A stretch of 64,000 nucleotides of DNA from Anaerolineae bacterium (GCA_049974845.1 JBNGCP010000002.1:47127-111126); one strand, 5' to 3'; shown: positions 20,990 through 61,858, numbered from the stretch's first letter. Made by a program: numbers and translations. The notes: generated by a model from the sequence alone, not told the origin.

Positions 20990-20990
20990 G

Positions 20991-38519: not shown

Positions 38520-38664
38520 CTTTCCCCACAACTAGACATGTCGGCGGTATCTTCGCTTCGGAATAACCCGCGCTCCTCCCATTATAGCACGACGCACCGT
38601 GGCACGCCATGGCACGAGAAACACCGCACCGACGTGAGCGCGAGGGCGCCTCAGAAGCCCTAAC

Positions 38665-44205: not shown

Positions 44206-47200
44206 TCAGGGAGCAGGTGTTACTCCGTCCACGACAACCGGCAGATAGATCAGCCGTTGTAGGCAGAGATCCACGTCAACGTCGGCGCTGCCCACCACTC
44301 GGTTGCCCCAGCTATCCACCGCTTCCACCCTCACCGTGTACGTCCCGCACGTGGCATACGTGTGGCTGGCGTCCGCTGTCGCGTAGGCTGGCGTGTAGGA
44401 GCTGCCGTCACCGAAGTCCCACCTGAAGCTGACGCCGTGGGTGTCGGTGATATTCGAGGTAAGCTCCGCTTCAAAGACCGTAAGGCTGCTGGCATTATCC
44501 GGCGTGACGTTGTTGATTGTCACCATCGGCTCGTCAGCGGCCCAGGCAAGGAAGCCGGAGAGCAGCTCCGAGCGGCTCGTGCCGCCGTGGACATCATTTA
44601 CCCCCTCCAGCCCAAAGGTCGTGTAGACCGACCGGCCCAGGTAAGTGATACCGGGGCGCTCCAGGGTGGGCTGATCACGATGCGCCATTGCCACCACACC
44701 TTCGTCGATGTTGTTGGCGCCGGGATACATAAGAAGCGGCGTGTAGGCCAGCGGACCCTCCGTATCACCCGGCGAGGCCCAAGGTTGGGGAGCGATCTCG
44801 TCAACGTACCATTGGTTGCCCGCACCATCCTTGATGACGTGGGGCACAAGCTGCGCCCTCACTTCGCCGGCGGGGTTGTCGGTCGAGTGCACGTTGACGT
44901 ACAGATTGCCGGCCAGGTAGAGATTCAACAGCTGTTGTGTGAAGGTCAGATCCCCGCTCCAGCTCAACGTCTCCGTCACTACCTGGGTCTGGGTGAAGGG
45001 GAAGATCGGAACGAGCGCAGGCCCGTTCACGTCCACCGTGCCACTGTGAATGTGAGCGGCGGTGATGGACACCGTATCGCTGACGGCGAGCATCACCTGG
45101 TAATCAAAGGTGTTGGTATTCTGCTCGTAGCCGTAGACGATCTCACCTGAGGTGGTGGTCGCTACCGGCGGCACTTCGTTGTAGCCCGCCAGCACCGACC
45201 TGGTGAACATCGGGACGCCGATGTCCACGTCGAGGTCGGCCAGCGCCGCCGGGGCAGCGTCGTGCGGCACGATGCGCCGGCCCGGAGCGCCGAATGCCGT
45301 CACGCTGTCCTGCAGCCAGTTTCCGCCCAGCACAGCGCTGTAGAAGAACTCACCGCTGTCGGGAGCAGCGGAGCCGAGAACACTGGACAGATCCTGGCCC
45401 ATCGCGATGATGGTGCCGCCGGCATTCGCATACTCGGTCAGGATATTCATATCCAGCGAGGTGAGCGGTGTCGACACGGTGAAAGTCCCATCAGGGTAGA
45501 AGTTGTCGCCGGTGAAGATGAGGATCGTGTCGTAGGCCATCAGCGTTGCGGCGTCGGGGATCGTGGTAGCACGCCCGTAGTAAAGCCCGGCGTCCCACAC
45601 GTCGTACGTCAGGCCAATGTCATCCAGCGCATTGGTGTAGTAGGCGAGATAGTCAGGGAAGCCGAGCAACGAGTTGGCGCCGACATCGATGATCAACACA
45701 TCAGCTTCAGCGGGCATCGCCGTTGTGCGTGCCCACGCCGGTGCGTGCGCCTCATGCTGCTGATCGCCGGCGAGGATGATGAAGCCCTGATTGTCGCCGA
45801 TACCTGCGCTCGTCGTGCTGTCGAAGGTCACCGAGATTGTCGTCGACGCTCCCGGCGCCAGCGTGACCGAGCTCGGCGCCACAGAGAAGCCGGGCAGCGT
45901 CGTGGTCACATTCTCAAAACCGTCCCCGGTGTAGAGCGTGCTCAGCTCGTAGGTCTCCGTCGCATCGGTGATGTTCCTGACCGCGACGGTGAGCGTTTTG
46001 CTCGTCCCCGTCATCACAAGGCCGAAGCTCAGGCTTGGTGGGTCGAGGATGACGCCCGGGTCTGCGGCCTTCCCTACATCGATCCGCCCGGCGCCCATAT
46101 CCAGCGGCTGGGCGGGCGAGCCATCGGCGTTGTAGACCTCCAGATACTTGGACGTGGACATCAACGCCGACTTGATGTCGGCATTGGACCAGTCAGGATG
46201 GAGCGCCCGCAGCAGGGCCGCCGCGCCCGCAACGTGCGGCGCGGCCATCGAGGTACCGGAGGCCTGGCCATAGCCCAGGTGCCGATCCTCGCCGACGGCG
46301 CCGGGCGTAAAGCCTTGCGCTATGATGTTGACGCCAGGCGCAGCGACGTCGGGCTTGAGCACGTTGCCGACGCCAGGCCCGCGACTGCTGAAGTTGGCGA
46401 TGACGTCCGGAACGTTGCCAGCCTGGAAGGCGATGGTGTTGAGCTCGAGCACCGCATCGACGCCAGCCGTCTCGGCTTCGGCCTGCTTGTCGACCATCGC
46501 CTCGCCGGCCGTCTGGCCAATGAAGACCGAGGAGATAGTCACCTGGTCGGCGAAGTCGGCTCCAGCCATATTGATCAACTCATCGCCGTCATTATTATAG
46601 ATGACCGCGAATTCGGCACCGGCCTCTTGAGCGTAGTAGACCTTCGTACTGAAGGTGCAGCCACCCCGGCTGATGACGGCCGCGTGGCCTGTGAAGGCGT
46701 CAGCCGGGAACGGATCACACCCCGTAGTGTTTGCGGGGGTCACATTGGCAGCCGACAGGTACGTGTGCGTGATGACCGTGGCCTGCGGCAGCGGCGCGCC
46801 GAAATCAGCCGTTCCATAGGCGACGTTCTGTAACGTCGGTGAGATGGGTTCCGGCGCGATCACGCTCAACCGCCCGGCTCTATAGGTGCCGCCGGTCGAG
46901 CTCGCCGCCACATTGATGTAATCCGGGGAGGGATGGTCACCCGTCCCCAATCCGGGTCCGGCGTTGCCGTTGGACATTGAGACAAAGATCCCGGCCTCCG
47001 CGGCGTTGATCAGCGCCGCGTCCAGTGCGTCGAACTCACCTCCCAGGCTTCCCGGACCGCCACCCCAGGAGTTGTTGAGGACATCAGCGCCGTCGGCGAC
47101 GATATCCTCAAGGGCAGCGAGACCCTCTGCCGTGTAGAAGGAGCCGTCATTCGTCACGCTATTGTAGAAGACGCGATAGCTCATCAGCCACGCGCCCGGC

Positions 47201-48114
47201 GCAACGCCGCTCAGCGGCGGCACGTCAGCCCCCAGATATGTGACGTCCGTCATCACGTTGCCCGCGGCTATCGAGCCGGTGTGGTTACCGTGCGGCGTAC
47301 CTCTGGTGCCCGGCCAGGGATTCTCATCGCCAGCCGACGGGGGATCCCACTCACGGAAGTAGACGCGCGAGGCGATGATCTTGCCGTTGTTGTTCTCGGT
47401 AAAGCCCAGGCCGTTGGGTGGAAAATCGGCCGGATAGTCGAAACCCGTGCCGTCGAACATCGGGGCGGCGTGATGCAGCCCGCCATCCATGGAGGCGACT
47501 TTCACTCCGGCCCCGGCATCCGCCTGTCCGCCCAGCTCGCTCCACAGCACCGGAGCGTTGATCAGGTGTGTGCTGGTATACACTTGGGGCGTATAGGCAT
47601 AGTCCAGATAGACGCGCTTGACGCCGGGAAGGCCTGCCAAGGCGCGCCGGGCAGCTTCGGGACCCACCTCACCGGGATCGACCGCCAGGCCGTTGAAAAG
47701 GATCTGATAGGTGGCGGTTTCTCGGGCGCCAAACTCGTTAATGTAGCCACTGACAGACGCTTGCGGGAGGACCGATTGCATCGCGGTGCGGAACGCGGCT
47801 TGCTCGGTCTCCAGCCGCGATACGTAGGCCTGCGCAGCGGGAGCATCGACGTTCAGACGCCCGCCGACCGACTGTAAGGAGGGAACACTCTGAGACCATA
47901 CGGACAACGGAGGCGACTCCAACTCGACAATCAGCCGGTGCGATGTCCGAGGTGTCGAGGGCTCAAGCTCAGCGGGAGAGTCGGCAGCTTGTCTGATCGG
48001 AGCTGCCAGCTCAACCGTCTCCGATCCGTCCGGTGCCTGAGCGGCAACGGGCGTGATCGCCAGCAACATCGCAAACAGAAGCAGAATATTCAGCCAACGT
48101 AGCTTTGTCATCAT
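44206..48114 (-). CDS. Secreted S8 family subtilisin-like serine peptidase with PA, CHRD and PKD domains
   Basis: Signal peptide MMTKLRWLNILLLFAMLLAITPVAAQA. Catalytic triad motifs: Asp (VASMDGG), His (HGNHTGSIAAGN), Ser (GTSMAAPHVAGAAALL). CHRD (AAHIHSGTVDVNGPALV...NLYVNVHST). C-terminal PKD (FRWDFGDGS). AAAGGA RBS. Confidence 0.85.
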   Translation of the reverse strand: MMTKLRWLNILLLFAMLLAITPVAAQAPDGSETVELAAPIRQAADSPAELEPSTPRTSHRLIVELESPPLSVWSQSVPSLQSVGGRLNVDAPAAQAYVSRLETEQAAFRTAMQSVLPQASVSGYINEFGARETATYQILFNGLAVDPGEVGPEAARRALAGLPGVKRVYLDYAYTPQVYTSTHLINAPVLWSELGGQADAGAGVKVASMDGGLHHAAPMFDGTGFDYPADFPPNGLGFTENNNGKIIASRVYFREWDPPSAGDENPWPGTRGTPHGNHTGSIAAGNVMTDVTYLGADVPPLSGVAPGAWLMSYRVFYNSVTNDGSFYTAEGLAALEDIVADGADVLNNSWGGGPGSLGGEFDALDAALINAAEAGIFVSMSNGNAGPGLGTGDHPSPDYINVAASSTGGTYRAGRLSVIAPEPISPTLQNVAYGTADFGAPLPQATVITHTYLSAANVTPANTTGCDPFPADAFTGHAAVISRGGCTFSTKVYYAQEAGAEFAVIYNNDGDELINMAGADFADQVTISSVFIGQTAGEAMVDKQAEAETAGVDAVLELNTIAFQAGNVPDVIANFSSRGPGVGNVLKPDVAAPGVNIIAQGFTPGAVGEDRHLGYGQASGTSMAAPHVAGAAALLRALHPDWSNADIKSALMSTSKYLEVYNADGSPAQPLDMGAGRIDVGKAADPGVILDPPSLSFGLVMTGTSKTLTVAVRNITDATETYELSTLYTGDGFENVTTTLPGFSVAPSSVTLAPGASTTISVTFDSTTSAGIGDNQGFIILAGDQQHEAHAPAWARTTAMPAEADVLIIDVGANSLLGFPDYLAYYTNALDDIGLTYDVWDAGLYYGRATTIPDAATLMAYDTILIFTGDNFYPDGTFTVSTPLTSLDMNILTEYANAGGTIIAMGQDLSSVLGSAAPDSGEFFYSAVLGGNWLQDSVTAFGAPGRRIVPHDAAPAALADLDVDIGVPMFTRSVLAGYNEVPPVATTTSGEIVYGYEQNTNTFDYQVMLAVSDTVSITAAHIHSGTVDVNGPALVPIFPFTQTQVVTETLSWSGDLTFTQQLLNLYLAGNLYVNVHSTDNPAGEVRAQLVPHVIKDGAGNQWYVDEIAPQPWASPGDTEGPLAYTPLLMYPGANNIDEGVVAMAHRDQPTLERPGITYLGRSVYTTFGLEGVNDVHGGTSRSELLSGFLAWAADEPMVTINNVTPDNASSLTVFEAELTSNITDTHGVSFRWDFGDGSSYTPAYATADASHTYATCGTYTVRVEAVDSWGNRVVGSADVDVDLCLQRLIYLPVVVDGVTPAP

Positions 48115-48301
48115 GACTGTCCTTTCGGGAACCTGGAATCGGGTACTCTGAAGCACCTCAGACTCAAGCCTTCTGAAGCTTCCGCGACTTCGCTGACACC
48201 TCCTTCTAGACTCAAGACACACCCCGTACCCCCAAAGGGCAGGAACACCGGATCATAGATGTTCCCGCCCTTTGACATCCCTCACGATCCACTCCACTGC
48301 G

Positions 48302-48655
48302 TCAGTCGCTGCCCTGATAGATGCGGTCGGTCTTGGCTGCAGCGATGAAGTCGTTGCGATGCAGCCCGCCTATCTTGTGAGTCCACCAGGTAACGGTCAC
48401 GCGTCCCCACTCCAAGACAATCTTGGGATGATGGTCCTGTTCCTCCGCCATCTCCCCCACGGCGTTCGTGAACGCGAGAGCCTGCACAAAGTCGGGAAAC
48501 GAGAGATCGCGTTCCAGCCGCTTGATCCCTTCTCGCTCCACCACCTCCCACTCCGGCACCTGCGAGTGCAGTTCGGAGATCGCGTCCTCCCCTAGCGGCG
48601 TGCCACCCTCCTTACAGGGCGTGCACGTCTCCACGGCAAGGTCCAGATCGGTCAT
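48302..48655 (-). CDS. Pterin-4a-carbinolamine dehydratase (PCD/DCoH) family protein
   Basis: EEQDHHPKIVLEWGRVTVTWWTHKIGGLHRNDFIAAAKTD is the classic PCD motif. ATG at 48655 with GGAAGGAGGG 5 nt upstream; the ORF-track start is a GTG with no SD. Confidence 0.8.
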   Translation of the reverse strand: MTDLDLAVETCTPCKEGGTPLGEDAISELHSQVPEWEVVEREGIKRLERDLSFPDFVQALAFTNAVGEMAEEQDHHPKIVLEWGRVTVTWWTHKIGGLHRNDFIAAAKTDRIYQGSD

Positions 48656-48692
48656 AGGCACCCTCCTTCCAGATGTCACCGTGTGGTGACGA

Positions 48693-49442
48693 TCACGCCA
48701 GCTTGCAGATCGCGCCCGCCTGCTTGATCCGCAAGGCTATCGTCTCCAACACCCTGAAGCTGTGATCCAACCCTTCGTTTCCTTGGTACGCCGCGATGAG
48801 ATCTTGACCGACGACCAGATCGAAGTTATAGGCGCCTAGCGATAGGACCAGTCCCTGCTGACCCTCCAACAATGGCGAGCGGAAGAGCCCACCCTCAGCA
48901 ACATCCTGAACGAGGTGACGGACCAGTCGCCCCATGCCCTGCATCATCTGTTGCGTCTTGGTATAGAGCGCCGGGCTTAGCACCACAGCATAGGGGCCGA
49001 AGAAACCATCGGCAAAGAGCTGTTCGGTCGCCGATACGATGTCCGTCAACGCCCCGCCCCGCTCATCCCAGTCGCCCAACTCGACGCTCTTATCGGCGGC
49101 GTCCAGGAGCTCATTGAGGATCATCCGATCCTCAGCCTGCGCACAGGCCATCGCGGCATGCGCTGCTGCCCCTGTCTCCAGGGGAAGACCGGTCTTGCGG
49201 CTGGCTTCGATGGCTTGCCAGTACAGCATAAAAGACTCTTCGATGACTTCCAGCCGGACAAACTCACGATCCGCGCCCGTCCCAACAGGTACGAGCTCAA
49301 CCCCTGGGCCCATAGGCCCCTTCAAATCGAGGAAGCGCCGCCCCACCAGGAACTGACGGGCTGTCGCGACCACGGTCTCATCAACCCGCTCCCACTCCGA
49401 ATCCGTCAAAGGTGCATCACCCCGCATCAAATACTCACTCAT
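48693..49442 (-). CDS. Family 1 encapsulin nanocompartment shell protein (Linocin M18-like, HK97 fold)
   Basis: 249 aa. N-terminal APLTDSEWERVDE...LVGRRFLDLKGPMG and C-terminal LVVGQDLIAAYQGNEG...FRVLETIALRIK are collinear with characterised encapsulins such as the T. maritima shell protein. Confidence 0.8.
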   Translation of the reverse strand: MSEYLMRGDAPLTDSEWERVDETVVATARQFLVGRRFLDLKGPMGPGVELVPVGTGADREFVRLEVIEESFMLYWQAIEASRKTGLPLETGAAAHAAMACAQAEDRMILNELLDAADKSVELGDWDERGGALTDIVSATEQLFADGFFGPYAVVLSPALYTKTQQMMQGMGRLVRHLVQDVAEGGLFRSPLLEGQQGLVLSLGAYNFDLVVGQDLIAAYQGNEGLDHSFRVLETIALRIKQAGAICKLA

Positions 49443-49451
49443 GGTTTCCTC

Positions 49452-50441
49452 CTATTCTTCTCTTAACCTTAGGCTACCTACTGTGAATTGGCCTGCTGAC
49501 GGCTTCGGCTCCTTGTCTGGTTTCGATTCCACCGGCTGCGGTGGCGTGGGAGCCGGCGCCTTCTTTGCTGCGGCTTCCTCGGCCTCCTCCATCAACTCTC
49601 TCGTCACCGTGGCCAGGAGCCCATTGCGAGTCACCATGTTATCGATCTCGATGACCAGATCAGGGTGATCCTCGAGCTCAGGATCCTGGGCCAGCACGGT
49701 GAAGCGCTCGCGGGCTTCCTCGGTGAGCTCCAAGTCGGACGCCAGCGCGGGCAGAACTGCACGACTCATATCCACACCAGGATAGTCGAAGGGCAGCTCC
49801 TCCCCCATCTCGCTCAACTCCTCGGCAAAGTGAGACATATGCTTCATATGGCGCATCGCCGAGAGCTCCACCTCACTTCCCACCGGGCAGATGAAGTCCT
49901 CAAAAACGAAGGCGTGACGAAGCTGCTGGAGCACCAGTTTGTACTGCTCGTCAACCTCTTTGTGGAAGCGCTGCATCATATCGGGCGAAAACGCAGCCTC
50001 TTCGAACTCCAGCGGCTCCTCACCCTCAGGTCCGAGCTTCTCCAGCCAGCTCTGGAAGCGACGACGGTGTGTCAAAGACTCCCATCCAAGCTGCAGCAGA
50101 ATGCGCTTCAGCTCTCGGTCCTCCACCCCCGCCGCTTGCTCCTCGTACATCTTGATGAGATCCTCCTCAAACTCGATGTAGGAGCGCAGCAACGCGGCGT
50201 TGGACGTGCCCTCGTACGGATAGTCCGCCTTCCGCATGTCGGGCTCCGCACCCATCTCCCCGATCTCATCCCCAAGCCAGTTCATATGCCACATCTCCTC
50301 CCGCGCAGTGGAGAGCAGCATTTGACCCAGAGGCGTGTCTTCGCCAACCTGGTAGGCGTGAATGAGGTAGCGGAGAATGGATGCATGTTCGTCGGCAAGA
50401 TCCTTGTTGAGCATCTCTATGAGCCCTTCTCGATCCATCAA
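49452..50441 (-). CDS. Encapsulin cargo protein: tandem bacterioferritin/ferritin-like four-helix-bundle domains with C-terminal encapsulin targeting peptide
   Basis: Domain 1 carries the Bfr-like di-iron ligand pattern (LNKDLADEHASILRYL, REEMWHMNWLGDEIGEMG, EEDLIKMYEEQ, ESLTHRRRFQSWLEKLG). Domain 2 is the same fold with the ligands largely lost. A Pro/Lys/Ala-rich linker is followed by ...GQFTVGSLRLREE (GSL-type targeting peptide). It lies 9 nt upstream of the shell gene. Confidence 0.7.
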   Translation of the reverse strand: MMDREGLIEMLNKDLADEHASILRYLIHAYQVGEDTPLGQMLLSTAREEMWHMNWLGDEIGEMGAEPDMRKADYPYEGTSNAALLRSYIEFEEDLIKMYEEQAAGVEDRELKRILLQLGWESLTHRRRFQSWLEKLGPEGEEPLEFEEAAFSPDMMQRFHKEVDEQYKLVLQQLRHAFVFEDFICPVGSEVELSAMRHMKHMSHFAEELSEMGEELPFDYPGVDMSRAVLPALASDLELTEEARERFTVLAQDPELEDHPDLVIEIDNMVTRNGLLATVTRELMEEAEEAAAKKAPAPTPPQPVESKPDKEPKPSAGQFTVGSLRLREE

Positions 50442-50544
50442 TGACCCTCCTTGTCACGTCTCGAGATACCGAAGCCGGTGCACATAGATTAACACCAGAC
50501 GGCCAGCTCTGCAAGCTTAGTCTATGTCGCTTCTCTGCCGGCGC

Positions 50545-51792
50545 TCAGTGCTTGAAGCTCCGCTGGCCCGTGAATACCATCGTCGCGCCGGCCTCGTTCA
50601 CCGCTTCAATGACCTCGTAGTCGCGAATCGAACCACCTGGTTGGATGACAGCGGTGACGCCTTCCCTGAGGCCCACGTCAACCCCATCGCGGAAAGGGAA
50701 GAAACCGTCAGAGACCATAGCGGCGCCCTTGAGACCGCCATGTGCTTCCGCGACCTCGCGATCGATCTCCTCGGCATACTCGGGCTCCAGAAAGCGATAG
50801 GGCGTCTGATAACGCATGTAGGCAAGACGCTCGCCCATGTTGCGGTAAGCCTTGTCCCGCGCGATCACCGCCACGCCCACGCGATCCTGCTCGCCGCCCC
50901 CGATCCCCACCGTGACCCCATTCTTCACGTACAGAACCGAATTCGAGGTCACGCCGGCCTCAACCATCCAGCCGAAGAGCATGTCGTCGATTTCGCTCTC
51001 CGTTGGCGCTCGCGCGACCCTGTAAGTCTCACCCTTCCGTGTGGTCTCCGCCGGTATCAGGTCCTCCGCCGTGCGAACGGAGGGCACGAACGACAGCTGC
51101 GCGATCACGGCGCCGTCAATCAACGACTTGAAGTCAATATACTGCTCCGTCGCGAAGCTCCTGAGCCGCTCGAGCGCCCGGATCCGCATAATCCGCAGGT
51201 TCTTGCGCCCAGCCAGAATCTCGATAGTCCCCTCCTCGTACTCAGGCGCGACGACCACCTCCGCATACCGGCACGCGATAGCCTCTGCCGTCCCCTTGTC
51301 CACGGCACGGTTGAGCCCGATGCATCCACCGAAGGCCGCGATATGGTCTGCCAGGTCCGCCTTAATGTAAGCATCCTCCAAGCTATCCCCGATCGCCACC
51401 CCAGCCGGGTTGTTGTGCTTCATCACCGCCGCCGCCGGTCGATCGGGCAGATAGCGCAGGATGTTCAGGGCGTTGTCCGCATCGGTCAGATTGATCTTCC
51501 CCGGATGTTTGCCGAACTGCAGCAGCTCGGCATCGGAGACCAGATAGCGACCGGGCGCGATCGTCGTCACGTCACCCAGCGTCAGGTTGCCGTTGATCAG
51601 CCTATAGAGCGCGGCCTCCTGACCGGGATTCTCCCCATAGCGAAGGCCTTTGCGCTCACCCTCGATCTCCCACGTCACCTTCTCGTAGATCAGCGTCGAT
51701 CGACGCTCATCAAAGACGAAACTGATCTCCATCCGTGGTGGGAAGTTGTCCTCTAGGATCGTCCGGTAAGCCTTCTTGAGGTCGGTTGTCAT
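50545..51792 (-). CDS. purH: AICAR transformylase domain protein (PurH C-terminal half as a separate gene)
   Basis: AICARFT motifs [38 protein letters not shown]. Own start MTTDL at 51792 with GGGGGAGAGAG SD directly upstream. The N-terminal extension in the ORF track is out-of-frame read-through. Confidence 0.75.
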
Positions 51793-51844: not shown

Positions 51845-52525
51845 CTACAAAAGCGTATAGAGCTGCGGCACCTGGGTGTGCTCCTGCTTGCCAAGGTAGT
51901 CGGCGATAGCGGCGTCGTACGCCGCCGTATGGCGAAACGCCTTGCGCGCGTAGACGAACCGGGTCTCGAGGTTCAGCGCCCCATCTCCCAGCCGAAGTGC
52001 GCCCAGCAAAGCCACGTAGTCCGCCGGATCCACCACCGGTGTGACCCGAAGGTAGTTCTTGGCCGCTGCACGCAGCATGCAAGGCCCCCCTATGTCGATG
52101 TTGGCCCGAGCCTGCTCGACCGTCACACCCGCACTAGCCACCGTCGCCTCGAACGGATAGAGGTTCACCACCACCATGTCGATCGGGATGGCGCCAGTCC
52201 GCGCCAAATCGGCCTGATGCGCATCGTTGTAGGTCTCGGTGAGCAACCCCAGGTAGACGCGAAAGTCCAGTGTCTTCACCAGCCCTCCCTGTGTCTCCGG
52301 TTGCCCCGTGTACTCGGCAACGGCCGTGAGCGTCCCCTCCGCGACCTCAGGGCCCAGAATCTCCGTAATCGCACGATAAGTCCCTCCGGTCGAATAGATG
52401 CGGACATCGGGATTGATCTCCAGTAGGCCGGGAATCAGGGCCTCAAGCCCGGACTTATCCGACACGCTGACCAGCACCCGTCGGATCTGCACCCAATCAT
52501 CGACCCTGTCTACGAAGTTCACCAT
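51845..52525 (-). CDS. purH: IMP cyclohydrolase (MGS-like) domain protein (PurH N-terminal half as a separate gene)
   Basis: RVLVSVSDKSGL, GGTYRAI, VVVNLYPF, IDIGGPCMLRAAAKN. Ends with its own stop. Start at M19 (52525) has AAGGAG 9 nt upstream. Confidence 0.75.
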   Translation of the reverse strand: MVNFVDRVDDWVQIRRVLVSVSDKSGLEALIPGLLEINPDVRIYSTGGTYRAITEILGPEVAEGTLTAVAEYTGQPETQGGLVKTLDFRVYLGLLTETYNDAHQADLARTGAIPIDMVVVNLYPFEATVASAGVTVEQARANIDIGGPCMLRAAAKNYLRVTPVVDPADYVALLGALRLGDGALNLETRFVYARKAFRHTAAYDAAIADYLGKQEHTQVPQLYTLL

Positions 52526-52658
52526 AGAGTACATCTCCTTCGCCTTGATATCTCTTGCTTCAATGACAGTGAGAAGCACAACCCAACATCATCTGGTGAG
52601 CACTGGGCAAGCGGCTGGCAGCAAGCACTGCGAGGCGGACGTCAAGCGGCACAACTGC

Positions 52659-53147
52659 CTACTCTACCTTCACAGCAAGCACGGAACAATGTGCATACTG
52701 AATAACCCGTGCTGTCAGGGTCCCACTCAACCCCCGTCGTGCGCTTTCAAGTTGAGCCTCGCCGATCACGATGAGATCTGCACCCAACTCACGGGCTACA
52801 TCCGCGATCTGGGCGTGCGGTATTCCGCGTCGCACAACCCGACTGCAGCTCACGCCCTGCGCTTTGGCGATTCCAGCTACGTGCGCGAGATAGTACCAGC
52901 CCTTTTGCTCCAGGCTTCGACGCACGGCTTCCTCAGTCTCGTCGGATGTTGCCACGACCTCATCCACAGCTCGATTGTCCACGATGTAGATAGCGGTCAG
53001 CGGCAGCCTATGAATCGCCGCCATATGGATGGCTATCCGACCGGCCCGAATCGAGGCGTCCGACCCGTCAATCGGCACCAAGATACGTGTGAATGGGCTG
53101 TCCGGCGCCTGTCTGTCGTGCTTCGCAACCTCTGAGTTATCCTGCAC
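52659..53147 (-). CDS. Universal stress protein (UspA family)
   Basis: ILVPIDGSDAS...GADLIVIG...GS...HCSVLAV Usp pattern. Confidence 0.75.
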   Translation of the reverse strand: MQDNSEVAKHDRQAPDSPFTRILVPIDGSDASIRAGRIAIHMAAIHRLPLTAIYIVDNRAVDEVVATSDETEEAVRRSLEQKGWYYLAHVAGIAKAQGVSCSRVVRRGIPHAQIADVARELGADLIVIGEAQLESARRGLSGTLTARVIQYAHCSVLAVKVE

Positions 53148-53183: not shown

Positions 53184-53828
53184 TCACCGGTTACCCTCGC
53201 CCTGACGATTGATGCCGTGCTCGGCTTTGATGCGCTTGAGCCGAAAGAGCTCTTCGCGCTCTCTCTCCTCTAGGACGCTCTCGATATAGTCGACCCGCTC
53301 TTCATATTCCAGTATGAAGACATGCTCCAACGCGTTGACCCTGCGTTGTGTTTTCTGTAGCTCCCTTGCCAGGCGCCACACCGTCGTGATCAGCTCCGCC
53401 AGCTCCGGTATCTCATCAAGCACATTACGAAAGCGAGTGGCTGCTTCATCAAGGGAGACCGTCGTGTTCCCCATTCCGTACGGGATTTCGGGAGGGGCGC
53501 CCTTTGCTGATACCTGTGGCACCGGAACGCCCATTATGCTACTGAGTCTGACCTCGACCTCGGTAGTCTTGTTCACAGAGAGAGCAGCCCATACCAGGTG
53601 CTCGCGACCCATGACGAGCCGCGCCAGCTGCAACGCGTCATATGCATCTGCCAGCAACTTCTCAACCCTAGAGCGCATCCTCCGCGCATCATCAGCAACC
53701 CGCAGAAGCTCACTGGTCAAGACTTCGCGCTTTCGGTCGAGGATGTCGTGCCCCTCCCTGGCCAGCTCCAAGGTCTCACGGGCACGGATCAGGTTGCTCT
53801 TTGTCGGCGCGACTGACCACTGACTCAT
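53184..53828 (-). CDS. atpD: V/A-type ATP synthase subunit D
   Basis: Coiled-coil [37 protein letters not shown] and later conserved D-subunit pattern. Overlaps atpB by 4 nt. Confidence 0.8.
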
Positions 53829-55273
53829 GACTCCTCCTCGTGCTGACTGCTCTCCCTAGGAGCGCTCGCCTGCGTACGTTTTCGATAGTGTTCGTCGATC
53901 TCCTCCTCCCGCAACCGCGTGAGCTCGGATCGTGGCAGAACTGACAAGACCCGCCAGCCAGTGTCGAGCGTCTCTTCAATGGATCGCTTCTCCCGCTCTC
54001 CCTGCCCCAAGAACTGCTTCTCGAAATCCTCACCGAACTTCAAATAGGCCTGGTCGACGGGGCTCAGCTCTTCCTCACCGATCACCGAAGCTAGCGACCG
54101 CGCATCCTGGGCCTCGCCATAGGCGGCATACAGCTGCGAGGCCAGATGAGGATGATCCGCTCGCGTGTATCCCGGCCCAATGCTGTCCTTCATCAGACGG
54201 GAGAGCGAAGGCAAGATATCGACCGGAGGATAGATCCCCTGCTGAAACAGCTCGCGGCTCAGGACAATCTGTCCCTCGGTAATATACCCCGTTAGATCCG
54301 GAACCGGATGTGTGATGTCATCGTTAGGCATCGTCAGGATTGGTATCTGGGTGATGCTGCCCTCGGACTCCTTGATCTTACCTGTTCGCTCATACATAGA
54401 GGCCAGATCGCTATAGAGGTAGCCAGGGTATCCTTTACGGCTGGGTATCTCACCGCGCGCGCTGGAGACCTCGCGTACGGCCTCGCAGTAGTTGGTCATA
54501 TCAGTCAAAATGACCAGAACATGCATCCCCTCCTCGAAGGCCAGAAACTCAGCCAAGGTCAGGGCGGCCCGCGGTGTGATGATTCGCTCGACGGCAGGAT
54601 CATCCGCCAGATTCAGGAACATGGCAACTCTGCTAAGCGCACCCTCGCTCCTGAGGGCGTCCTGGAAAAACGCTGCCACATCATGCTTCACACCCAGCGC
54701 CGCAAAGACAATCGCGAACTGATCCTGACCACCATCGGCGAGCAGGCCGGCCTGGCGCGCGATCTGCGCCGCAATCTGATCATGAGGCAGCCCACTCCCG
54801 GAGAAGATGGGGAGCTTTTGTCCCAGCACGAGCGTGTTCATTCCATCTATCGCGGAGATGCCGGTGTAGATGGGGTCGTGAGGATAGCGTCGCGCCGTCG
54901 GGTTGATGGGTTGACCGTTGACGTTAGCCCACGTTTGAGCGATAGGATCAGGCAGCCCATCGATTGGGTTGCCTAAGCCGTCGAAAACCCGACCAAGCAT
55001 CTCCGCAGCTACAGGGATATGCATCGGACTACCGGTTAGCCGGACCCGCGTTTCGTCGATCGACAGGCTTGTCGTGCCGGCAAACACCTGCACAACCGCT
55101 GTCTGCTGTCCAACCTCAAGAACGCGACCTGGCCGCACCTGGCCGCTGGCATCGATGACTTCTACCACCTCATCATAGCTGACATCGGAGATCCCCTCAA
55201 TCACCACAATAGGGCCCTCAATGCCCGCAATCCCCTTGATCTCTCGACCCGCAGACATACCCAACTCGGTCAT
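53825..55273 (-). CDS. atpB: V/A-type ATP synthase subunit B
   Basis: Non-catalytic B-subunit pattern ([29 protein letters not shown]). 482 aa. Confidence 0.9.
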
Positions 55274-57054
55274 GCGTACTCCTGGGCCAGATCATCCATC
55301 TGCTGATGGAGAACCTCTTCGATCTCATCAAGCTGTTCAAGCTCATCATTGGCAACCGTAGCCTTCATCCTGACAAGCAGATCCACAATGGACTGTTCCC
55401 GCAGGACGACAATCGGGCATCCCTGCTCTATCAGGTCGGCGGCCCGGTCATGAAACGCCAGGATAAGTTGCAGCAACCGGATCTGCTTCTCAGCGGTCGT
55501 GAACGTATCGATATCGTCCATTGCGTCTTGCTGTAGAAAGCCTTCGCGCAGCAGACGTGCCACTTCGAGGACAAGCCGTTGGTCGTCCGGCAACGCATCT
55601 GCACCAATAAGCTGCACGATTTGCTGGAGCCGACTCTCTCTCTGAAGGATACTCAGGGCACGACTGCGAACCTTCTCCCAGTCGCCGTAACCCTGTTCCG
55701 TCCACCAGGCGCTCATCTCATCGACGTATTGGCTATAACTACCAAGCCAATCGACCGCAGGAAAGTGTCGCTCCGACGCCAACTCCTTGTCCAGCGCCCA
55801 AAAGCAGCGCACAAAACGACGTGTATGCTGGGTGACCGGCTCCGAGAAATCCCCCGCGGGTGGGCTGACAGCGCCGATCAGGCTGACAGAACCCAGACTC
55901 CCGCTCAACGTCGTGACCCGGCCCGCACGCTCATAGAACTCCGCGAGGCGCGTCGGCAGATAGGCGGGGAAGCCCTCCTCAGCCGGGAGTTCCTCCAGGC
56001 GGCCAGAGATCTCCCGCAGTGCCTCAGCCCACCTCGACGTTGAGTCCCCCATCAAGGCAACATCGTATCCCATATCTCGATAGTACTCCGCCAAGGTCAC
56101 GCCGGTGTAGATGCTGGCCTCACGTGCCGCCACAGGCATATTGGACGTGTTGGCGATGAGAATTGTGCGCTCCATCAAGGAGTGATCTGACCATGGATCG
56201 CGCAACTCCGGGAACTGACGCAGCACATCCGCCATCTCATTGCCACGCTCCCCGCAGCCTACGTAGATAATGACATCAGCGTCGCTCCACTTGGCAATCT
56301 GATGCTGGAGCACCGTCTTTCCCGCGCCAAAACCGCCGGGAATCGCCGCCGCCCCGCCCTTTGCCAAGGGAAAGAATGTGTCGAGAACGCGCTGTCCCGT
56401 CACAAGCAGATCGTTTGGAGGCTGTCGCTCGGCATAGGGCCGAGGTTTTCGCACCGGCCACTGCTGCAACATCGTGACGCCCTGCTCGCCCCGATCACAA
56501 GCGATCTTCGCGATCTCGTCCTCGAGCGTGTAGATGCCTTCTGGCGCAAGCCACGTGAGTTCGCCAGCAAGCCCAAGAGGAACCATCACGCGGTGCTGAA
56601 CCAAGGGTGTCTCCGGCACCTCACCCACGATCGCACCACCCGAGACCTGCTGGCCCACCTCGACGCTCGGATGAAACTCCCATTCCTTTTTGCGATAGAG
56701 GGGTGTGAGCCGCACACCACGTCCGATGAAGGTCCCGGAGCGCATCTCCATTACGGGCAACGGACGCTGAATGCCGTCGAAGATGCTTGACATCAACCCG
56801 GGCCCAAGCTCGACCGAGAGAGGCGCACCGGTGCGGTAGATCGCCGCCCCGGGCTTGAGACCCGATGTCTCCTCATAGACCTGGATGGTTAGCTCATCGC
56901 CATTAAGCTCGATCACCTCGCCGACGAGATGGTCAGCGCCGACCTCCACCACCTCCTGCATACCAATCTGCCGCGACCCACGAGCGCGCACGACTGGCCC
57001 ATTGATCCAGGTAATCGACCCGGCGCGCTCACGCGTGATCTCGGTCCCGATCAT
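55270..57054 (-). CDS. atpA: V/A-type ATP synthase catalytic subunit A
   Basis: Walker [10 protein letters not shown]. 594 aa with the A-subunit non-homologous insert region. Confidence 0.9.
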
Positions 57055-57671
57055 GCATCCCTCTCCTCAGTCAATATGTCATAGATGCGCGACCGCAGCG
57101 TGAGCCGTCGGCGGTCCAACCGTGTCTGTAGCGTATTGTCGTATCGGAAACGCCCATCAGAGCTCTCGACCACAACGCCGATTCTTTCCGAAAGATCGTC
57201 ACCAAAGGCTATCTCCACCTCGGTTGCCTCTGCCAGCCGAGTCAAAGCATCTTCATCGAACATTCCGCGGGTTTGCGGATCAGCTCGCACCAGAACACTT
57301 GCGACGCCGGGCAGATGCTCGACGGCGTCCTTCACGAGCGCCTCGGTGATTTCTGTCCAGCCTTCGAGCTTGGCAGCATCTTGTAGTCGTTCCTCCGCTA
57401 AGCCGAACACTTCGCTCAGAAGCTCCTCGCGTTTTTGCAGCCGGTGCGCGGTCGCCTCGGATTGCCCCTCCGCGATTGCGCTTCGATGAATCTGGTCCAC
57501 TTCTTTGCTAGCATCGCTGATGATTCGCGCCCGGAGAGCCTCAGCTTCGACCTTCGCCCGCTCCCGAATAGTACGAGCCGTTTTCTGTGCGTCGCTAAGA
57601 ATCCGCCATCGGTCACCTTCGGCTTCGGCCTTGGCCGCTGCCCTCAGTGCGCCAACACCACTCTCGTTCAC
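57051..57671 (-). CDS. atpE: V/A-type ATP synthase subunit E
   Basis: Long coiled-coil N-terminus and globular C-terminus typical of subunit E. 206 aa. 4-nt overlaps with both neighbours. Confidence 0.7.
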   Translation of the reverse strand: MNESGVGALRAAAKAEAEGDRWRILSDAQKTARTIRERAKVEAEALRARIISDASKEVDQIHRSAIAEGQSEATAHRLQKREELLSEVFGLAEERLQDAAKLEGWTEITEALVKDAVEHLPGVASVLVRADPQTRGMFDEDALTRLAEATEVEIAFGDDLSERIGVVVESSDGRFRYDNTLQTRLDRRRLTLRSRIYDILTEERDA

Positions 57672-57973
57672 AGTCTCACTCCCAATGTGCGTCGCAGAAT
57701 CTCTCCGATGGACGGCCGATCAGGGTCAGGCCCCTCTGGCCCCGGTATCTGGACAAAGAGCGGTAGCTCGCTTCGCGCCATCAGATCGGCAATGCGATCT
57801 TGAGCCAGCTTCGCTACATCCTCGGTGATCAGAACAACCCCCACGTCACGCTGCTCCAGCACGTCATCCAAGGCAGCTCGTAGCTCAGACGCTGTCTCAG
57901 CTACCTGGCCATGGACACCCGTGAGCGCAAAACCCCAGACGGCCGGCCGCGAGCCAATCACGACAACCTTCAT
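57668..57973 (-). CDS. atpF: V/A-type ATP synthase subunit F
   Basis: MKVVVIGSRPAVWGFALTGV...VGVVLITEDVAKL pattern. 101 aa. Confidence 0.75.
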   Translation of the reverse strand: MKVVVIGSRPAVWGFALTGVHGQVAETASELRAALDDVLEQRDVGVVLITEDVAKLAQDRIADLMARSELPLFVQIPGPEGPDPDRPSIGEILRRTLGVRL

Positions 57974-57981
57974 AAGGAGAC

Positions 57982-58416
57982 TCAGCCAAGGATAATGAAA
58001 GCGATAATCAAACCGTAGATGGCCACACCCTCGGCCAGTCCCACGAAAATCAGCGCGCGGCCAAAGATCTCGGGTCTCTCAGCGATTGCTCCCACCGCGG
58101 CCGACCCTACCGTGCTAACCGCATACGCTGCTCCTAACGATCCCGCGCCCACCGCGATGGCTGCCGCTATGTAGGCCATGGAATCAGTCCCCGTCCCTTG
58201 CTGTCGCAGCCCCATAGCATAGACGACATCAGGGGCCAGGAGCCATACCAGCCCGAGCCCCGCTACGCACAGGGCGATCACTAGATGCGCCAGGCTTATG
58301 CCAAGAACCATCGGGCGCGCAGAGCTGCTATGCCCACGCCAGCGTCTGATAGCCCACAGAAGCGCCGGCAAGAAGGGAAACAATCCTGGTATCACAACCA
58401 TCAATCCTCTTAACAT
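57982..58416 (-). CDS. atpK: V/A-type ATP synthase proteolipid subunit K (c-ring)
   Basis: Gly/Ala-rich helices AVGAGSLGAAYAV and GLAEGVAIYGLIIAFI with conserved Glu. The true start may be the internal Met (MVLGISL). Confidence 0.75.
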   Translation of the reverse strand: MLRGLMVVIPGLFPFLPALLWAIRRWRGHSSSARPMVLGISLAHLVIALCVAGLGLVWLLAPDVVYAMGLRQQGTGTDSMAYIAAAIAVGAGSLGAAYAVSTVGSAAVGAIAERPEIFGRALIFVGLAEGVAIYGLIIAFIILG

Positions 58417-58462
58417 ATCGAAACCTCCTCATTGAGGACTAGCTATGCGGAATCGACGTGCA

Positions 58463-60415
58463 CTAAGGCCGCTGCTCCGCTCCCAGCAGCGTCAACGGCT
58501 GGTACTGCTCTCCACCGCCTGAGAAGAACTTATCGAAAAGCTCATAGTATTCCAACCTTAGTGTCTGGATGACCACAATAAGTCCCTCAAAGCCGATCAC
58601 AAGTACATTACCCAACACCACGGTTGCCCAGTAAGCAGGGCTTCCACTGGAGCCCACCCTGCGAGCCAAAATAAACACCACAAGGCTGAGAGCTCCATGC
58701 GCAACGGCGAAGGCCCCCATCCGCACGTAGGATAGCGTGTTGCTTAAGAGACCGATGACGGCCTCAAACAGCTCGAAGAATCCCTCAAGGAGCGCCAGGC
58801 CCACATCGACATCTTCCTCCCCGCCAGAGTAGACTACGCGCGCCAAGGGCTCGTGGACCACCACGGCCAGAGCGGACACCACCGCGACCGGGACAAGCAA
58901 CCCCATGCTGACCGGCACCTTCGAGGTGAGCAGGCCGGCCCCTAACCCGATCAGCGACCAGTAGAAGGCCAGCCCTGCAAGACCCTTTCGGTCCAGTGCG
59001 AGATCCACCCACTGACCTCGAATTCCCGCTCCAACTACATTGTAGATCATCCCTAGCGTCAGCACCGCGATACCAAACCCCACTGTCGCCAGCAGCACGT
59101 CCATCGTCCGTTCAATCGGGTTGAGCCAAAGAGCCGGAATGACATCCTCAAAACCAAAGAGACTGCCGTAAAGAAACCCAAAGGCTGCGGATACGACCCC
59201 GCACGCCACCGCGATACCACCAAGTCCTGAGAAGCTCTTGAGAGCGCGGATCCTTCCGCTTAGCAGTAACGCGCCAAGGACAACCAACACAAACCCGTGG
59301 CCAACATCACCAAACATCACCCCGAAAATCAAGGGAAAAGTCAACGCCAGCAATGGCGTCGGGTCGAGCTCCTCGTACCGAGGGAGAGCATAGTTGGAGA
59401 CCAATTGCTGGAAAGCCCTGAGCGCTGGAGGATTGTTGTACTCAAACGGCGCCCGAGAGCGCTCCTCAGGTGTAGGTTCGGTGATATCGATCGTCAAGCC
59501 CGAGGAAGCCTCCGCGATAAGGCGGCGAAACTCCTCGGCTTTGGACGCCGGCACCCATCCCGTGACCACGTAGCTGTAGCGAAGCCGCTCATATTGGGCG
59601 ATCGTCTCTGCCACTCTGCGGCTCGCCCGCACCTGCCACAACAACTGACGAAGCTTGCGGATGCGCGTCTCATGAAAGTGATGAATCGCCGCCTGGCCCT
59701 GCGCGATCCCCTCCCGGGTTTCATTTAGCTCTCTATCAAGCCTATCGAGTATCTCGTCCGGCGTCCCTTGGTATTCGTCAGGCAATTCGAGGCTGTTCAG
59801 GTAAGCGCTCCGGGCCGCTCGACGAAGGATATCGCTGTCGCGCCGAAGTCCGAAAAGACCCACGGTGGCCAGGCGGTCACGCTCGTCAAGGGTGACCAGG
59901 ACTGACGGCACATGTTCCAGACTGGTCCTGAGCCGCTCAACATTGCTGAGCGGCATAGAACCGAACATCGAGAAGATATACGTAGAACTGCGAAACGTCT
60001 CAAGCTCAATGCCTAGATCAGTGAGAGGCTCGATCTGGCTTCGCAGTCGCTGAAGCTGCGCCATCCGCTCTCGTGCTTGCTCGAGCTCTCCAACGGGTCC
60101 CCGAGCCTCTTCTTCAAGGGTCTCAATCTCGCGCGCCGCCTGATCCTCCGAGATCAGATGCGGCGTACCCCCGGGCGGTTCGCCTTCCTCTACCCCCAGC
60201 AAGTCCCTGACATCCGCGATTCGCTGGATCAAACGCGCATAAGTGTTGGCTCGCTCGCGCCAGCTGCCGGGGCCCAGGTCTGCAGCCTCTTGCTCTGCTT
60301 GAGGCGGTCTCGCCAGATGGAAGACGCCAGAAGCAGCCAACGCTTCGGTCACAGCGACAATATCATGTTCAGGTACAACAAGCTCAACCTTATACATTGG
60401 CTGAGATCGGAACAT
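58463..60415 (-). CDS. atpI: V/A-type ATP synthase subunit I (a-subunit)
   Basis: 650 aa. Hydrophilic coiled-coil N-terminal half and multi-TM C-terminal half with the conserved Arg-containing helix. Confidence 0.8.
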   Translation of the reverse strand: MFRSQPMYKVELVVPEHDIVAVTEALAASGVFHLARPPQAEQEAADLGPGSWRERANTYARLIQRIADVRDLLGVEEGEPPGGTPHLISEDQAAREIETLEEEARGPVGELEQARERMAQLQRLRSQIEPLTDLGIELETFRSSTYIFSMFGSMPLSNVERLRTSLEHVPSVLVTLDERDRLATVGLFGLRRDSDILRRAARSAYLNSLELPDEYQGTPDEILDRLDRELNETREGIAQGQAAIHHFHETRIRKLRQLLWQVRASRRVAETIAQYERLRYSYVVTGWVPASKAEEFRRLIAEASSGLTIDITEPTPEERSRAPFEYNNPPALRAFQQLVSNYALPRYEELDPTPLLALTFPLIFGVMFGDVGHGFVLVVLGALLLSGRIRALKSFSGLGGIAVACGVVSAAFGFLYGSLFGFEDVIPALWLNPIERTMDVLLATVGFGIAVLTLGMIYNVVGAGIRGQWVDLALDRKGLAGLAFYWSLIGLGAGLLTSKVPVSMGLLVPVAVVSALAVVVHEPLARVVYSGGEEDVDVGLALLEGFFELFEAVIGLLSNTLSYVRMGAFAVAHGALSLVVFILARRVGSSGSPAYWATVVLGNVLVIGFEGLIVVIQTLRLEYYELFDKFFSGGGEQYQPLTLLGAEQRP

Positions 60416-60464
60416 CCAGCCCTCCTCACCTCAACAGACCAGCGTTCGCTAGGGCTCCAGGCCC

Positions 60465-61538: not shown

Positions 61539-61540
61539 CC

Positions 61541-61858
61541 CTAGAGGACCCTTAAGACCTCGTCGACAACGGCGTCGACGGCTTCTGCTATGCGTGCACG
61601 TGCTTCTTCGCCAAACAGCTCCGCTTCCTCGTCAGCCTCGGCCACGATGCGAGCACGCTCGGAAGCCGCGGACGCCTCCCCCGCCCGGATGATACGTGCA
61701 GCTTGCTCCTGCGCCTGCTTTCTCACCTCCTCACGCGTGGCGGCTGCATCCGCCCTAGCCTCTTCAAGGATTTTGTCCGCCTCCGCCTGCGCTTCAGAGC
61801 GGATCCTGTCCGCTTCCTGCTCGATCGTCAGGATCGCCCTCACGGTCTCCTCGTTCAT
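61541..61858 (-). CDS. V/A-type ATP synthase peripheral-stalk subunit (G/H-like)
   Basis: About 105 aa coiled-coil rich in A/E/R (ILTIEQEADRIRSEAQAEADKILEEAR...), first gene of the operon. Start chosen at the internal Met at 61858. Confidence 0.55.
   Translation of the reverse strand: MNEETVRAILTIEQEADRIRSEAQAEADKILEEARADAAATREEVRKQAQEQAARIIRAGEASAASERARIVAEADEEAELFGEEARARIAEAVDAVVDEVLRVL

Follow-up and report, generated by a model that had tools for sequence, protein, structure and literature searches.

A Family 1 encapsulin locus with a double ferritin-like cargo and a neighbouring pterin-4a-carbinolamine dehydratase gene in an uncultured Anaerolineae bacterium

What is a pterin enzyme doing beside an iron nanocompartment? 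The question is raised by positions 48302 to 50441 of a 64,000-nucleotide stretch of DNA from an Anaerolineae bacterium (GCA_049974845.1 JBNGCP010000002.1:47127-111126), the whole of which is called the window here. An earlier note on this DNA, made from the sequence alone, had described an encapsulin operon with a tandem bacterioferritin-like cargo, a shell and a pterin-4a-carbinolamine dehydratase (PCD), and had suggested that the fused cargo would be a distinct architecture and that the company of the PCD was a combination not known before. We addressed these claims through the identities of the genes, the folds of their products, the conservation of motifs and of the targeting peptide, and the distribution of gene orders among relatives. 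The note named the genes correctly, but the cargo architecture that it took for new is not; what is new here is limited to minor variant features, read from sequence: a shifted N-terminal Glu, a C-terminal domain with the ligand columns QHHTNL, a shell with a short E-loop and a clade-specific PCD neighbour. We consider it quite probable that the locus is a classical Family 1 encapsulin system with a double ferritin-like protein (DFLP, or 'Bfr-type') cargo in an uncultured member of the Anaerolineae (Chloroflexota), and that PCD is a bystander.

The locus consists of the following features.

50442..50544, minus strand: intergenic region upstream of the cargo, after the C-terminal purH gene; likely operon promoter and 5' untranslated region
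50446..50450, minus strand: cargo Shine-Dalgarno sequence GGAGG, 7 nt upstream of the ATG at 50438, as seen in the sequence itself
49452..50438, minus strand: cargo gene for a double ferritin-like protein ('Bfr-type' encapsulin cargo), 328 aa, from Pfam, a PDB match and an AlphaFold2 model
50019..50438, minus strand: N-terminal ferritin domain, residues 1-140, with the candidate di-iron site E17, E48, H51, E91, E120/S121, H124 and the candidate heme ligand M49
49563..49985, minus strand: C-terminal degenerate ferritin domain, residues 152-292, with ligand columns Q165, H197, H200, T239, N272, L275, and with M198 and C184
49488..49562, minus strand: disordered Ala/Pro/Lys/Glu-rich linker, residues 293-317 (pLDDT 54-57, no secondary structure)
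49470..49487, minus strand: targeting (cargo-loading) peptide FTVGSL, 5 residues before the cargo stop
48693..49442, minus strand: Family 1 encapsulin shell with a short E-loop, 249 aa, from Pfam, NCBIfam, PDB and AlphaFold2/Foldseek
48302..48655, minus strand: PCD (PCD/DCoH, COG2154) with its own AGGAGG, 117 aa, from Pfam, NCBIfam and the catalytic signature

Three tightly packed minus-strand open reading frames (ORFs) are thus present where they had been placed, and two of their starts had to be moved. The cargo ORF (49452-50441) opens with TTG; the ATG at 50438, downstream of the GGAGG, fits the family N-terminus MDR..LI and is most likely the start, giving 328 and not 329 aa. Relatives have the same element, AAGGAGGG. 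The shell ATG lies 9 nt past the cargo stop, which overlaps the AGGAGG of the shell. For PCD, the start lies downstream of the GTG at 48679 proposed before. Read from the ATG at 48655, which follows AGGAGG by 6 nt and the shell by 37 nt, the protein is identical from first to last residue to NCBI P0121, encoded on a 131-kb contig of a metagenome-assembled genome, and agrees with an independent gene call on Logan contig L037.

The shell protein matches Pfam PF04454 Linocin_M18 at 1.3e-50 (172 bits, cutoff 24.3) and the NCBIfam equivalog encap_f1, NF041155, at 1.2e-58 (198.5 bits, cutoff 100). The Linocin-like Family 1 shell proposed earlier is therefore confirmed by two models, well above their cutoffs. 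Its PDB sequence match is EncA (9e-56), and NCBI P0241, which is 100% identical to it, is annotated 'family 1 encapsulin nanocompartment shell protein'. The AlphaFold2 model (pLDDT 83) has a predicted HK97 fold, with A-domain, P-domain, E-loop and N-terminal helix. In Foldseek it is most similar to M. xanthus EncA (TM score 0.85-0.91, 40-41% identity), followed by the T=4 iron-storage shells of B. methanolicus and Q. thermotolerans, while T. maritima 3dkt is superposed with a TM score of 0.84 at 23% identity. A cargo gene with a C-terminal targeting peptide directly upstream of the shell is the arrangement of a Family 1 operon. The shell models, the position of the cargo gene and its targeting peptide together bear out the reading of the locus as an encapsulin nanocompartment operon.

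The shell differs from its longer relatives in the E-loop. Around shell residues 44-66 (window 49245-49313), 9-30 residues are absent compared with relatives of 260-285 aa (alignment A2). About 100 clade relatives of 248-250 aa share this deletion, and the AlphaFold2 model is of low confidence exactly there. As a separate observation, four shells of 280-285 aa from JGI metagenome contigs (P0347, P0354, P0356, P0359) have a Cys/Glu-rich, metallothionein-like insertion in the E-loop, e.g. GVCAGDDCACEGEECDCGCAEGECTCES. To our knowledge, no comparable insertion has been described in encapsulins.

The cargo had been portrayed as two bacterioferritin-like domains in tandem, of which the first bears the ligands and the second is degenerate, and both the structural model and the ligand columns support this portrait. 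AlphaFold2, supplied with an 86-sequence alignment, predicts two four-helix bundles (pLDDT 90.1, pTM 0.84), with helices at residues 3-31, 36-61, 80-103 and 108-140 in the first and at 152-178, 186-210, 228-250 and 259-292 in the second, followed by a disordered stretch (293-319) and a short terminal helix over FTVGSL. Each bundle superposes on bacterioferritin subunits with target TM scores of 0.75-0.85 in a Foldseek PDB library without 9viw, where the cargo matches were single-domain bacterioferritins only. Standard profile models match generic ferritin-like families over the N-terminal part only (Pfam Ferritin, E 1.2e-7, residues 8-135). The two halves are detectably homologous by hhalign (probability 89.6%, E 1.9e-6), as the apparent products of a tandem duplication. 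Against the EncFtn/EncB models (EncB_fam and ferrit_encaps) the protein stays far below the cutoffs, with 27.2 bits for NF058679 (cutoff 90) and 22.9 bits for TIGR04535 (cutoff 125), and its 328 residues in eight long helices contrast with the single two-helix unit of about 100 aa found in EncFtn/Flp. Nor is it a bacterioferritin proper, with two fused domains and a targeting peptide instead of a single subunit of about 160 aa.

The notion that a fused catalytic and degenerate pair would be a distinct cargo architecture does not hold, as this architecture is already in the literature. Andreas & Giessen 2021 (PMC8346489) described a 'Bfr' class of Family 1 cargo with two four-helix bundles in Firmicutes, Aquificae, Chloroflexi and Cyanobacteria. 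Anuchina et al. 2025 (bioRxiv 10.1101/2025.09.13.676036) named the family DFLP and solved the crystal structure of TmDFLP from Thermocrinis minervae (PDB 9VIW). TmDFLP is a homodimer that forms no cage (by small-angle X-ray scattering and multi-angle light scattering) and has ferroxidase activity; its heme is sub-stoichiometric, and the residues M48 and M198 are 100% conserved in DFLPs. Among DFLPs, the cage-less homodimer, ferroxidase activity and heme binding are known for TmDFLP and CaDFLP only. According to the same preprint, the N-terminal site reads EEHEEH in 79.6% of domains, with partial iron occupancy, the C-terminal domain is more variable (EEHEEH 57%, ESHEEH 13.3%, KKQVEQ 9%), and CaDFLP from Caldanaerovirga acetigignens is encoded directly upstream of a Family 1 shell and ends in an FTVGSL-type targeting peptide. 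Since C. acetigignens also appears under "Bacterioferritin" in the 2021 supplementary table (PMC8346489), the 'Bfr' cargo and the DFLPs are the same class.

Judged by its sequence, the window cargo is a DFLP. TmDFLP is its top PDB sequence match (E 2.6e-24 with the single sequence, 7.2e-28 with the family profile), and the cargo residues C184, M198 and H200 carry the same numbers as in TmDFLP, where Cys184 forms an inter-protomer disulfide. An exhaustive profile search of 1.84 billion representatives gave 312 matches, and a wider DFLP alignment was built from 84 sequences (82 full-length matches, the window cargo and the partial 9viw sequence). In it the Met-Met pair is present in 82/84 sequences, the N-terminal EEHEEH in 79% and the C-terminal ESHEEH in 13%; these rates reproduce those of the preprint, so the same family was being examined. 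Full-length two-domain relatives form a continuous series from the window cargo to canonical EEHEEH/EEHEEH DFLPs. Among distant full-length homologues with 40-45% identity (Desulfobacterales, Aminicenantes, Nitrospiraceae, Syntrophus), the C-terminal columns read K-K-Q-V-E-Q, the published minor variant, and this sister group shares the N-terminal WES..H motif with the window cargo.

The position of the ligands shows where the window cargo departs from its class. In the family alignment of 86 sequences, E17, E48, H51, E91 and H124 are invariant and in register with the di-iron ligands of bacterioferritin and TmDFLP. The fifth canonical Glu, equivalent to TmDFLP E122 and Bfr E127, is an invariant Ser121, and the residue just before it, E120, is at least 90% conserved. 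The motifs listed in the earlier note (LADEHA, REEMWH, EEDL, ESLTH, the Pro/Lys linker and FTVGSLRLREE) are all there, with one correction: because its Glu sits one residue before the canonical position, ESLTH reads E-x3-H and not ExxH. This pattern, EEHE-S-H together with E120 (E-S-x-x-H), places the cargo in a minor sub-lineage (7/84). In the C-terminal domain the six ligand columns read QHHTNL and the di-iron site is thus lost, although M198 and H197 are invariant in the family and H200 nearly so. QHHTNL was unique to the window cargo among the representatives, the clade representative P0070 reading EHHTEL; within the same sub-lineage, P0361 and P0366 have the complete EEHEEH in their C-terminal domains. 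Across the 86 sequences neither M49 nor M198 varies, so that the Met of the bacterioferritin E-M-x-H motif is kept in both halves. In bacterioferritin and TmDFLP such paired Met residues ligate heme (M48/M198 in TmDFLP; Anuchina et al., bioRxiv 10.1101/2025.09.13.676036).

The C-terminal peptide links the cargo to the shell. The proposed GSL-type targeting peptide was confirmed by its conservation: [LF]x[VI]Gx[LI] is present in 110/115 full-length members of the cargo family and in at least 57/84 of the wider DFLP sequences. FTVGSL of the cargo is identical to the Q. thermotolerans and CaDFLP targeting peptides given in the preprint, and in a six-frame scan of the window it was the only [LF]x[VI]Gx[LI] inside a real ORF; no secondary cargo was found by this motif in the translated window. 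The linker before it varies freely in length and sequence across the family. Each Chloroflexota member that has linker and targeting peptide also has a shell gene 9-120 nt downstream, as one would expect if the targeting peptide is functional; this gives a positive answer to the suggested check for peptide enrichment near encapsulins. Among the relatives there are also shell-less DFLP homologues (L011-L017 and L031-L033, from Desulfobacterales, Aminicenantes, Nitrospiraceae and Syntrophus) that end within a few residues of bundle 2, with no linker, no targeting peptide and no encapsulin gene within 6 kb. Cargo homologues of about 320 aa form 339 clusters at 90% identity, with 55-73% pairwise identity within the family, and all the named ones are from Anaerolineae.

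We hypothesize the following mechanism, in which encapsulation, ferroxidase activity, heme binding and dimer formation are taken by analogy from TmDFLP, CaDFLP and EncA. The 249-aa HK97-fold protein would self-assemble into an icosahedral compartment, and the two bacterioferritin-like bundles of the cargo chain would pack like a bacterioferritin dimer, tethered inside the shell via FTVGSL on a flexible linker of about 25 residues. Fe2+ could enter by the shell pores and be oxidised at the di-iron centre of the N-terminal domain, the ferric product being laid down in the shell lumen; the mineral would be stored there because DFLPs form no cage themselves. The C-terminal domain, with its metal ligands lost, would mainly supply M198, which together with M49 may bind an inter-domain heme as in bacterioferritin, a plausible electron conduit for later iron release. 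Such a system would serve iron sequestration and tolerance to O2 and H2O2. PCD, with its canonical catalytic site, would be a housekeeping enzyme that shares the transcript only in this sub-lineage.

Is PCD then more than a neighbour? Its identity as a PCD homologue, already suspected, is borne out by NCBIfam NF002016 (152.6 bits, equivalog cutoff 133), in addition to Pfam PF01329 Pterin_4a (6e-30, 103.6 bits). Naponelli and colleagues reportedly defined, in 2008, the catalytic signature of COG2154 as [EDKH]x3H[HN][PCS]x5-6[YWF]x9[HW]x8-15D. The signature is complete in the window protein (EEQDHHPKIVLEWGRVTVTWWTHKIGGLHRND, residues 71-102), as it is in 120/120 top homologues. Neither this PCD nor any other linked copy has a [LF]x[VI]Gx[LI] targeting peptide. 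The 64-kb window contains no gene for a pterin-dependent hydroxylase, pterin synthesis, a pterin reductase or molybdenum cofactor synthesis. Our literature search found no paper linking PCD to encapsulins; among the rows listed in the Andreas & Giessen supplementary neighbourhood table there is one 'pterin' gene, at position -4 of an unrelated entry, which neither supports nor excludes the link.

Gene order among relatives gives a more direct answer. We surveyed 21 distinct cargo-shell loci with readable downstream sequence, in which the shell is followed by:

PCD, after spacers of about 28-75 nt: 7/21 loci (window, L001, L002, L003 (=L020), L005, L045, L048)
no gene before a convergent RpoD-like sigma gene: 7/21 loci (L004 (=L024), L006, L008, L023, L028, L046, L047)
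glutaredoxin, then an FTR-like/rubredoxin fusion, then Grx-PDZ: 4/21 loci (L007 (=L027, L036), L025, L026, L035)
rubrerythrin-like protein and flavodiiron protein: 2/21 loci (L010, L029)
an ORF of unidentified family, with desulfoferrodoxin-type superoxide reductase and rubrerythrin nearby: 1/21 loci (L009)

The check for PCD beside encapsulins in related genomes is therefore positive in one third of the loci, but these are confined to one clade. The PCD-positive loci form a single clade in the neighbour-joining tree of the shell, which was built without L045 and L048, and nearly so in the cargo tree. They share with their PCD-negative neighbours the frame sulfatase...cargo-shell-[PCD]-<sigma70-<DksA-<MscS, and in the window these MscS, DksA and sigma genes stand at 41.4-44.1 kb, separated from PCD by an inserted S8 peptidase gene. 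Because there is one clade and one syntenic frame, the adjacency amounts to roughly one evolutionary event. Linked PCDs show 66-78% identity to the window PCD, and unlinked PCDs of other Anaerolineae, which stand alone in three unrelated neighbourhoods, show 63-68%; with divergence this equal, there is no specialised "encapsulin PCD" subfamily. The PCD-encapsulin pair had been called a combination not known before. The literature searched is consistent with this, but the comparison makes of it a lineage-restricted gene order and not a dedicated component, and we think that PCD is probably a co-expressed housekeeping bystander, neither structural nor obligatory.

Several observations on these loci stand beside this result. 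Most PCDs of the group start with C-x-[PAR]-C, and the linked PCD of L045 (4779-5129) is without the motif and is the most divergent linked copy. At L007 4265-5662 (also in L025, L026, L027, L035 and L036) a glutaredoxin gene starts about 25 nt after the shell and is followed by a fusion of an FTR catalytic domain to a rubredoxin-like domain and by Grx-PDZ; this may serve the compartment as a thiol or iron-sulfur redox module. Genes for rubrerythrin-like proteins, flavodiiron proteins (ODP and flavodoxin domains) and desulfoferrodoxin-type superoxide reductase follow the shell at L010 7821-9505, L029 7253-8012 and L009 8168-10033.

PCD is probably co-transcribed with cargo and shell, as the promoter signals of relatives suggest. 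A clear TATAAT box lies 70-95 nt upstream of the cargo ATG in the relatives, and there is none in the shell-PCD spacer of any locus compared, which makes co-transcription of PCD likely. The window counterpart of the box, GGTGTTAATCT, is weak. A consensus promoter scan found no site in 50442..50544, the promoter and terminator scan of the window gave nothing above shuffled expectation, and in the minus-strand intervals between the genes, that from shell to PCD included, no terminator-like site appeared. A GTCACC-ACAC-GGTGAC hairpin right after the shell stop was considered as a processing or attenuation element and discarded, being no better than shuffled sequences (z = 0.46) and missing from the other PCD-positive loci. 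No real RNA family was found by an Rfam scan of 48000-50800.

Some observations weigh against a classical DFLP encapsulin with an indifferent PCD. The shell E-loop is unusually short, so its T number is not to be taken over from relatives. The sole candidate ferroxidase site is non-canonical (E-S-x-x-H), and its activity could differ from that of TmDFLP. HMMER, with the single sequence or the profile, aligned only the N-terminal part of the cargo, and that to both 9viw domains; the C-terminal domain of the clade is not alignable to that of TmDFLP by this method, and hhalign against reconstructed 9viw segments matches it equally weakly with the N-terminal (72%) and the C-terminal one (E 0.03). 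Because these comparisons gave no resolution, orthology of the duplication rests on C184, M198 and H200 and on the KKQVEQ sister group. Finally, PCD stays contiguous with the shell, after about 28-75 nt and without a visible promoter, while the flanking genes rearrange, which is compatible with selection for co-expression.

The alternative that survives best concerns the purpose of the compartment. Instead of storing iron in bulk, it may mainly detoxify O2 and H2O2 for an oxygen-sensitive organism, with the cargo acting mostly as an oxidant-consuming ferroxidase or peroxidase like bacterioferritin or rubrerythrin. We hold this as possible, though clearly the lesser option. The neighbours in sister clades are oxidative-stress genes of anaerobes (rubrerythrin, flavodiiron protein, desulfoferrodoxin-type superoxide reductase, glutaredoxins), so that those neighbourhoods appear to lean towards oxidative-stress defence; a universal stress protein gene is nearby in the window, and a dual role has been proposed for Flp encapsulins (PMC8346489). 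However, EncA and the Q. thermotolerans encapsulin, the nearest matches of the shell, are large iron-storage shells, and detoxification does not exclude iron storage, as ferroxidase chemistry does both.

It is tempting to propose instead that PCD is a genuine accessory of the nanocompartment, with reduced pterin as electron donor or antioxidant for the encapsulated di-iron/heme protein; we regard this as rather improbable. On this view reduced pterin would, for example, reduce stored Fe3+ for release or re-reduce the site, and PCD would dehydrate the 4a-hydroxy-pterin for recycling. The order cargo-shell-PCD is kept in seven distinct loci, each PCD with a Shine-Dalgarno sequence and without a separate promoter, although the surroundings change: the S8 peptidase lies after PCD in the window and upstream in L005, and the distance to purH varies. 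Sister clades fill the same slot with glutaredoxin and the FTR-like/rubredoxin fusion or with rubrerythrin and flavodiiron protein, with superoxide reductase nearby, so that a redox helper as third gene is a recurring theme. A pterin enzyme, FolB, has been proposed as a cargo of the M. tuberculosis encapsulin. For redox helpers, the ferric reductase cargo EncD is a precedent (PMC12746231). Against this stand seven close relatives with nothing in the slot, the single clade and frame, the equally similar stand-alone PCDs elsewhere, the missing targeting peptide, the lack of pterin-synthesis and pterin-reductase genes in the window, and a searched literature that gives the link no support. A narrower version, that a competent PCD was recruited as a soluble helper in one Anaerolineae clade, a tetrahydropterin serving as reductant or antioxidant and PCD recycling its carbinolamine, seems to us unlikely as well; if true, it would link pterin redox chemistry to an iron nanocompartment, in analogy to the glutaredoxin/FTR-like, rubrerythrin/flavodiiron and EncD-type helpers.

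Could the cargo be dead as a ferroxidase, and be an encapsulated heme protein or a nucleation scaffold only? The invariant S121 and the QHHTNL columns would fit this, and with their C-terminal EEHEEH, P0361 and P0366 may have the active site in the other domain. But E120 is displaced by only about a quarter of a helical turn and sits at i-4 from H124 on the same helical face, and the other five ligands are invariant. Strict conservation of six ligands at 55-73% pairwise identity argues for a working metal site, and we find a dead cargo unlikely. Least probable of all is an independent duplication that made the two-domain cargo merely convergent with DFLPs: the poor alignment of its C-terminal domain with TmDFLP would suit it, but the matching residue numbers of C184, M198 and H200, the continuous full-length series to canonical DFLPs and the sister group with the published KKQVEQ variant speak for common descent.

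Taken as a classical Family 1 system with a DFLP cargo, the locus can be placed among known ones. As in CaDFLP and TmDFLP, one chain would hold two bacterioferritin-like bundles with a Met pair for heme, N-terminal di-iron ligands, a more variable or degenerate C-terminal domain, Cys184 and a flexible tail ending in FTVGSL, and as with CaDFLP the gene is immediately upstream of a Family 1 shell. It differs from them in its fifth ligand, E-S-x-x-H in place of E-x-x-H, and in QHHTNL, which lies outside the variants named in the preprint (EEHEEH, ESHEEH, KKQVEQ); identity to TmDFLP is about 35%, in the N-terminal domain only, and the Anaerolineae host, the short-E-loop shell and the co-located PCD are further differences. 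With the M. xanthus EncA/B/C/D and Quasibacillus thermotolerans IMEF systems it shares the [L/F]TVGSL peptide and a ferritin-like cargo, and presumably the storage of iron in the lumen. However, EncB/C are two-helix decamers and IMEF a four-helix dimer, whereas the window cargo has two fused four-helix bundles with heme ligands; moreover, the locus is without an EncD-like reductase or ferredoxin and its shell is 30-40 residues shorter. The 24-meric bacterioferritin shares E-M-x-H, including the heme-ligating Met, and the domain pair of the window cargo would mimic its subunit dimer. Unlike bacterioferritin, the subunits are fused, one is degenerate, a targeting peptide is present and DFLPs form no cages, so that mineral storage would have to rely on the encapsulin.

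The window PCD resembles PhhB/DCoH-type enzymes (COG2154; NF002016) in its full-length match above the equivalog cutoff and its complete catalytic signature, and differs from them in standing downstream of an encapsulin shell gene with no aromatic amino-acid hydroxylase nearby. A PCD-like protein, acRAF, is also encoded in alpha-carboxysome operons, where it serves as an assembly factor for Rubisco and no longer has a PCD active site. Both are thus PCD-fold genes in operons of shelled compartments, but the window PCD keeps its catalytic residues and nothing suggests a chaperone.

Around the locus, the window holds other genes worth recording. Upstream of the cargo, purH is split into two minus-strand genes, an IMP cyclohydrolase/MGS part (51845-52579) and an AICAR formyltransferase part (50545-51792), separated by a real stop and a spacer of 50-90 nt. 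A frameshift was considered and rejected, since the same natural two-gene split in L002 and L003 makes it a lineage feature. Between PCD and the convergent sigma gene, 44206-48222 (minus strand) encodes a secreted S8 subtilase of about 1,300 aa with PA, Ig-like, CHRD and PKD domains; in L005 the homologous gene (56% identity) precedes the cargo. A V/A-type ATPase operon, complete with subunits I, K/c, E, C, F, A, B and D, occupies 53184-62339 (minus strand) and is followed by the universal stress protein gene at 52659-53147. Two fusions complete the list: an 844-aa CcmF-type cytochrome c maturation protein with a C-terminal AhpC/TSA-thioredoxin-like domain (18521-21055, minus strand), which adjoins CcmC-like and ABC genes, and a 925-aa transaldolase-phosphoglucose isomerase (35754-38531, minus strand), which adjoins a ribulose-phosphate 3-epimerase gene.

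In summary, if the locus is what we think it is, it brings into the recently defined DFLP-encapsulin class a well-resolved example together with a sizeable clade of Anaerolineae, which counts about 340 cargo clusters (90% identity) and about 100 shells with a short E-loop. The shifted Glu (E-S-x-x-H), the degenerate C-terminal domain that keeps its heme Met and the truncated E-loop of the shell would provide natural variants for work on mechanism. The shell-less sisters, which end exactly where linker and targeting peptide start, would show how a cytosolic protein was turned into cargo. The variable third gene (PCD, glutaredoxin/FTR-like, rubrerythrin/flavodiiron protein or none) offers a modest lead on electron flow to and from compartments, and only if PCD proved functional there would it amount to a new link between pterins and iron storage.

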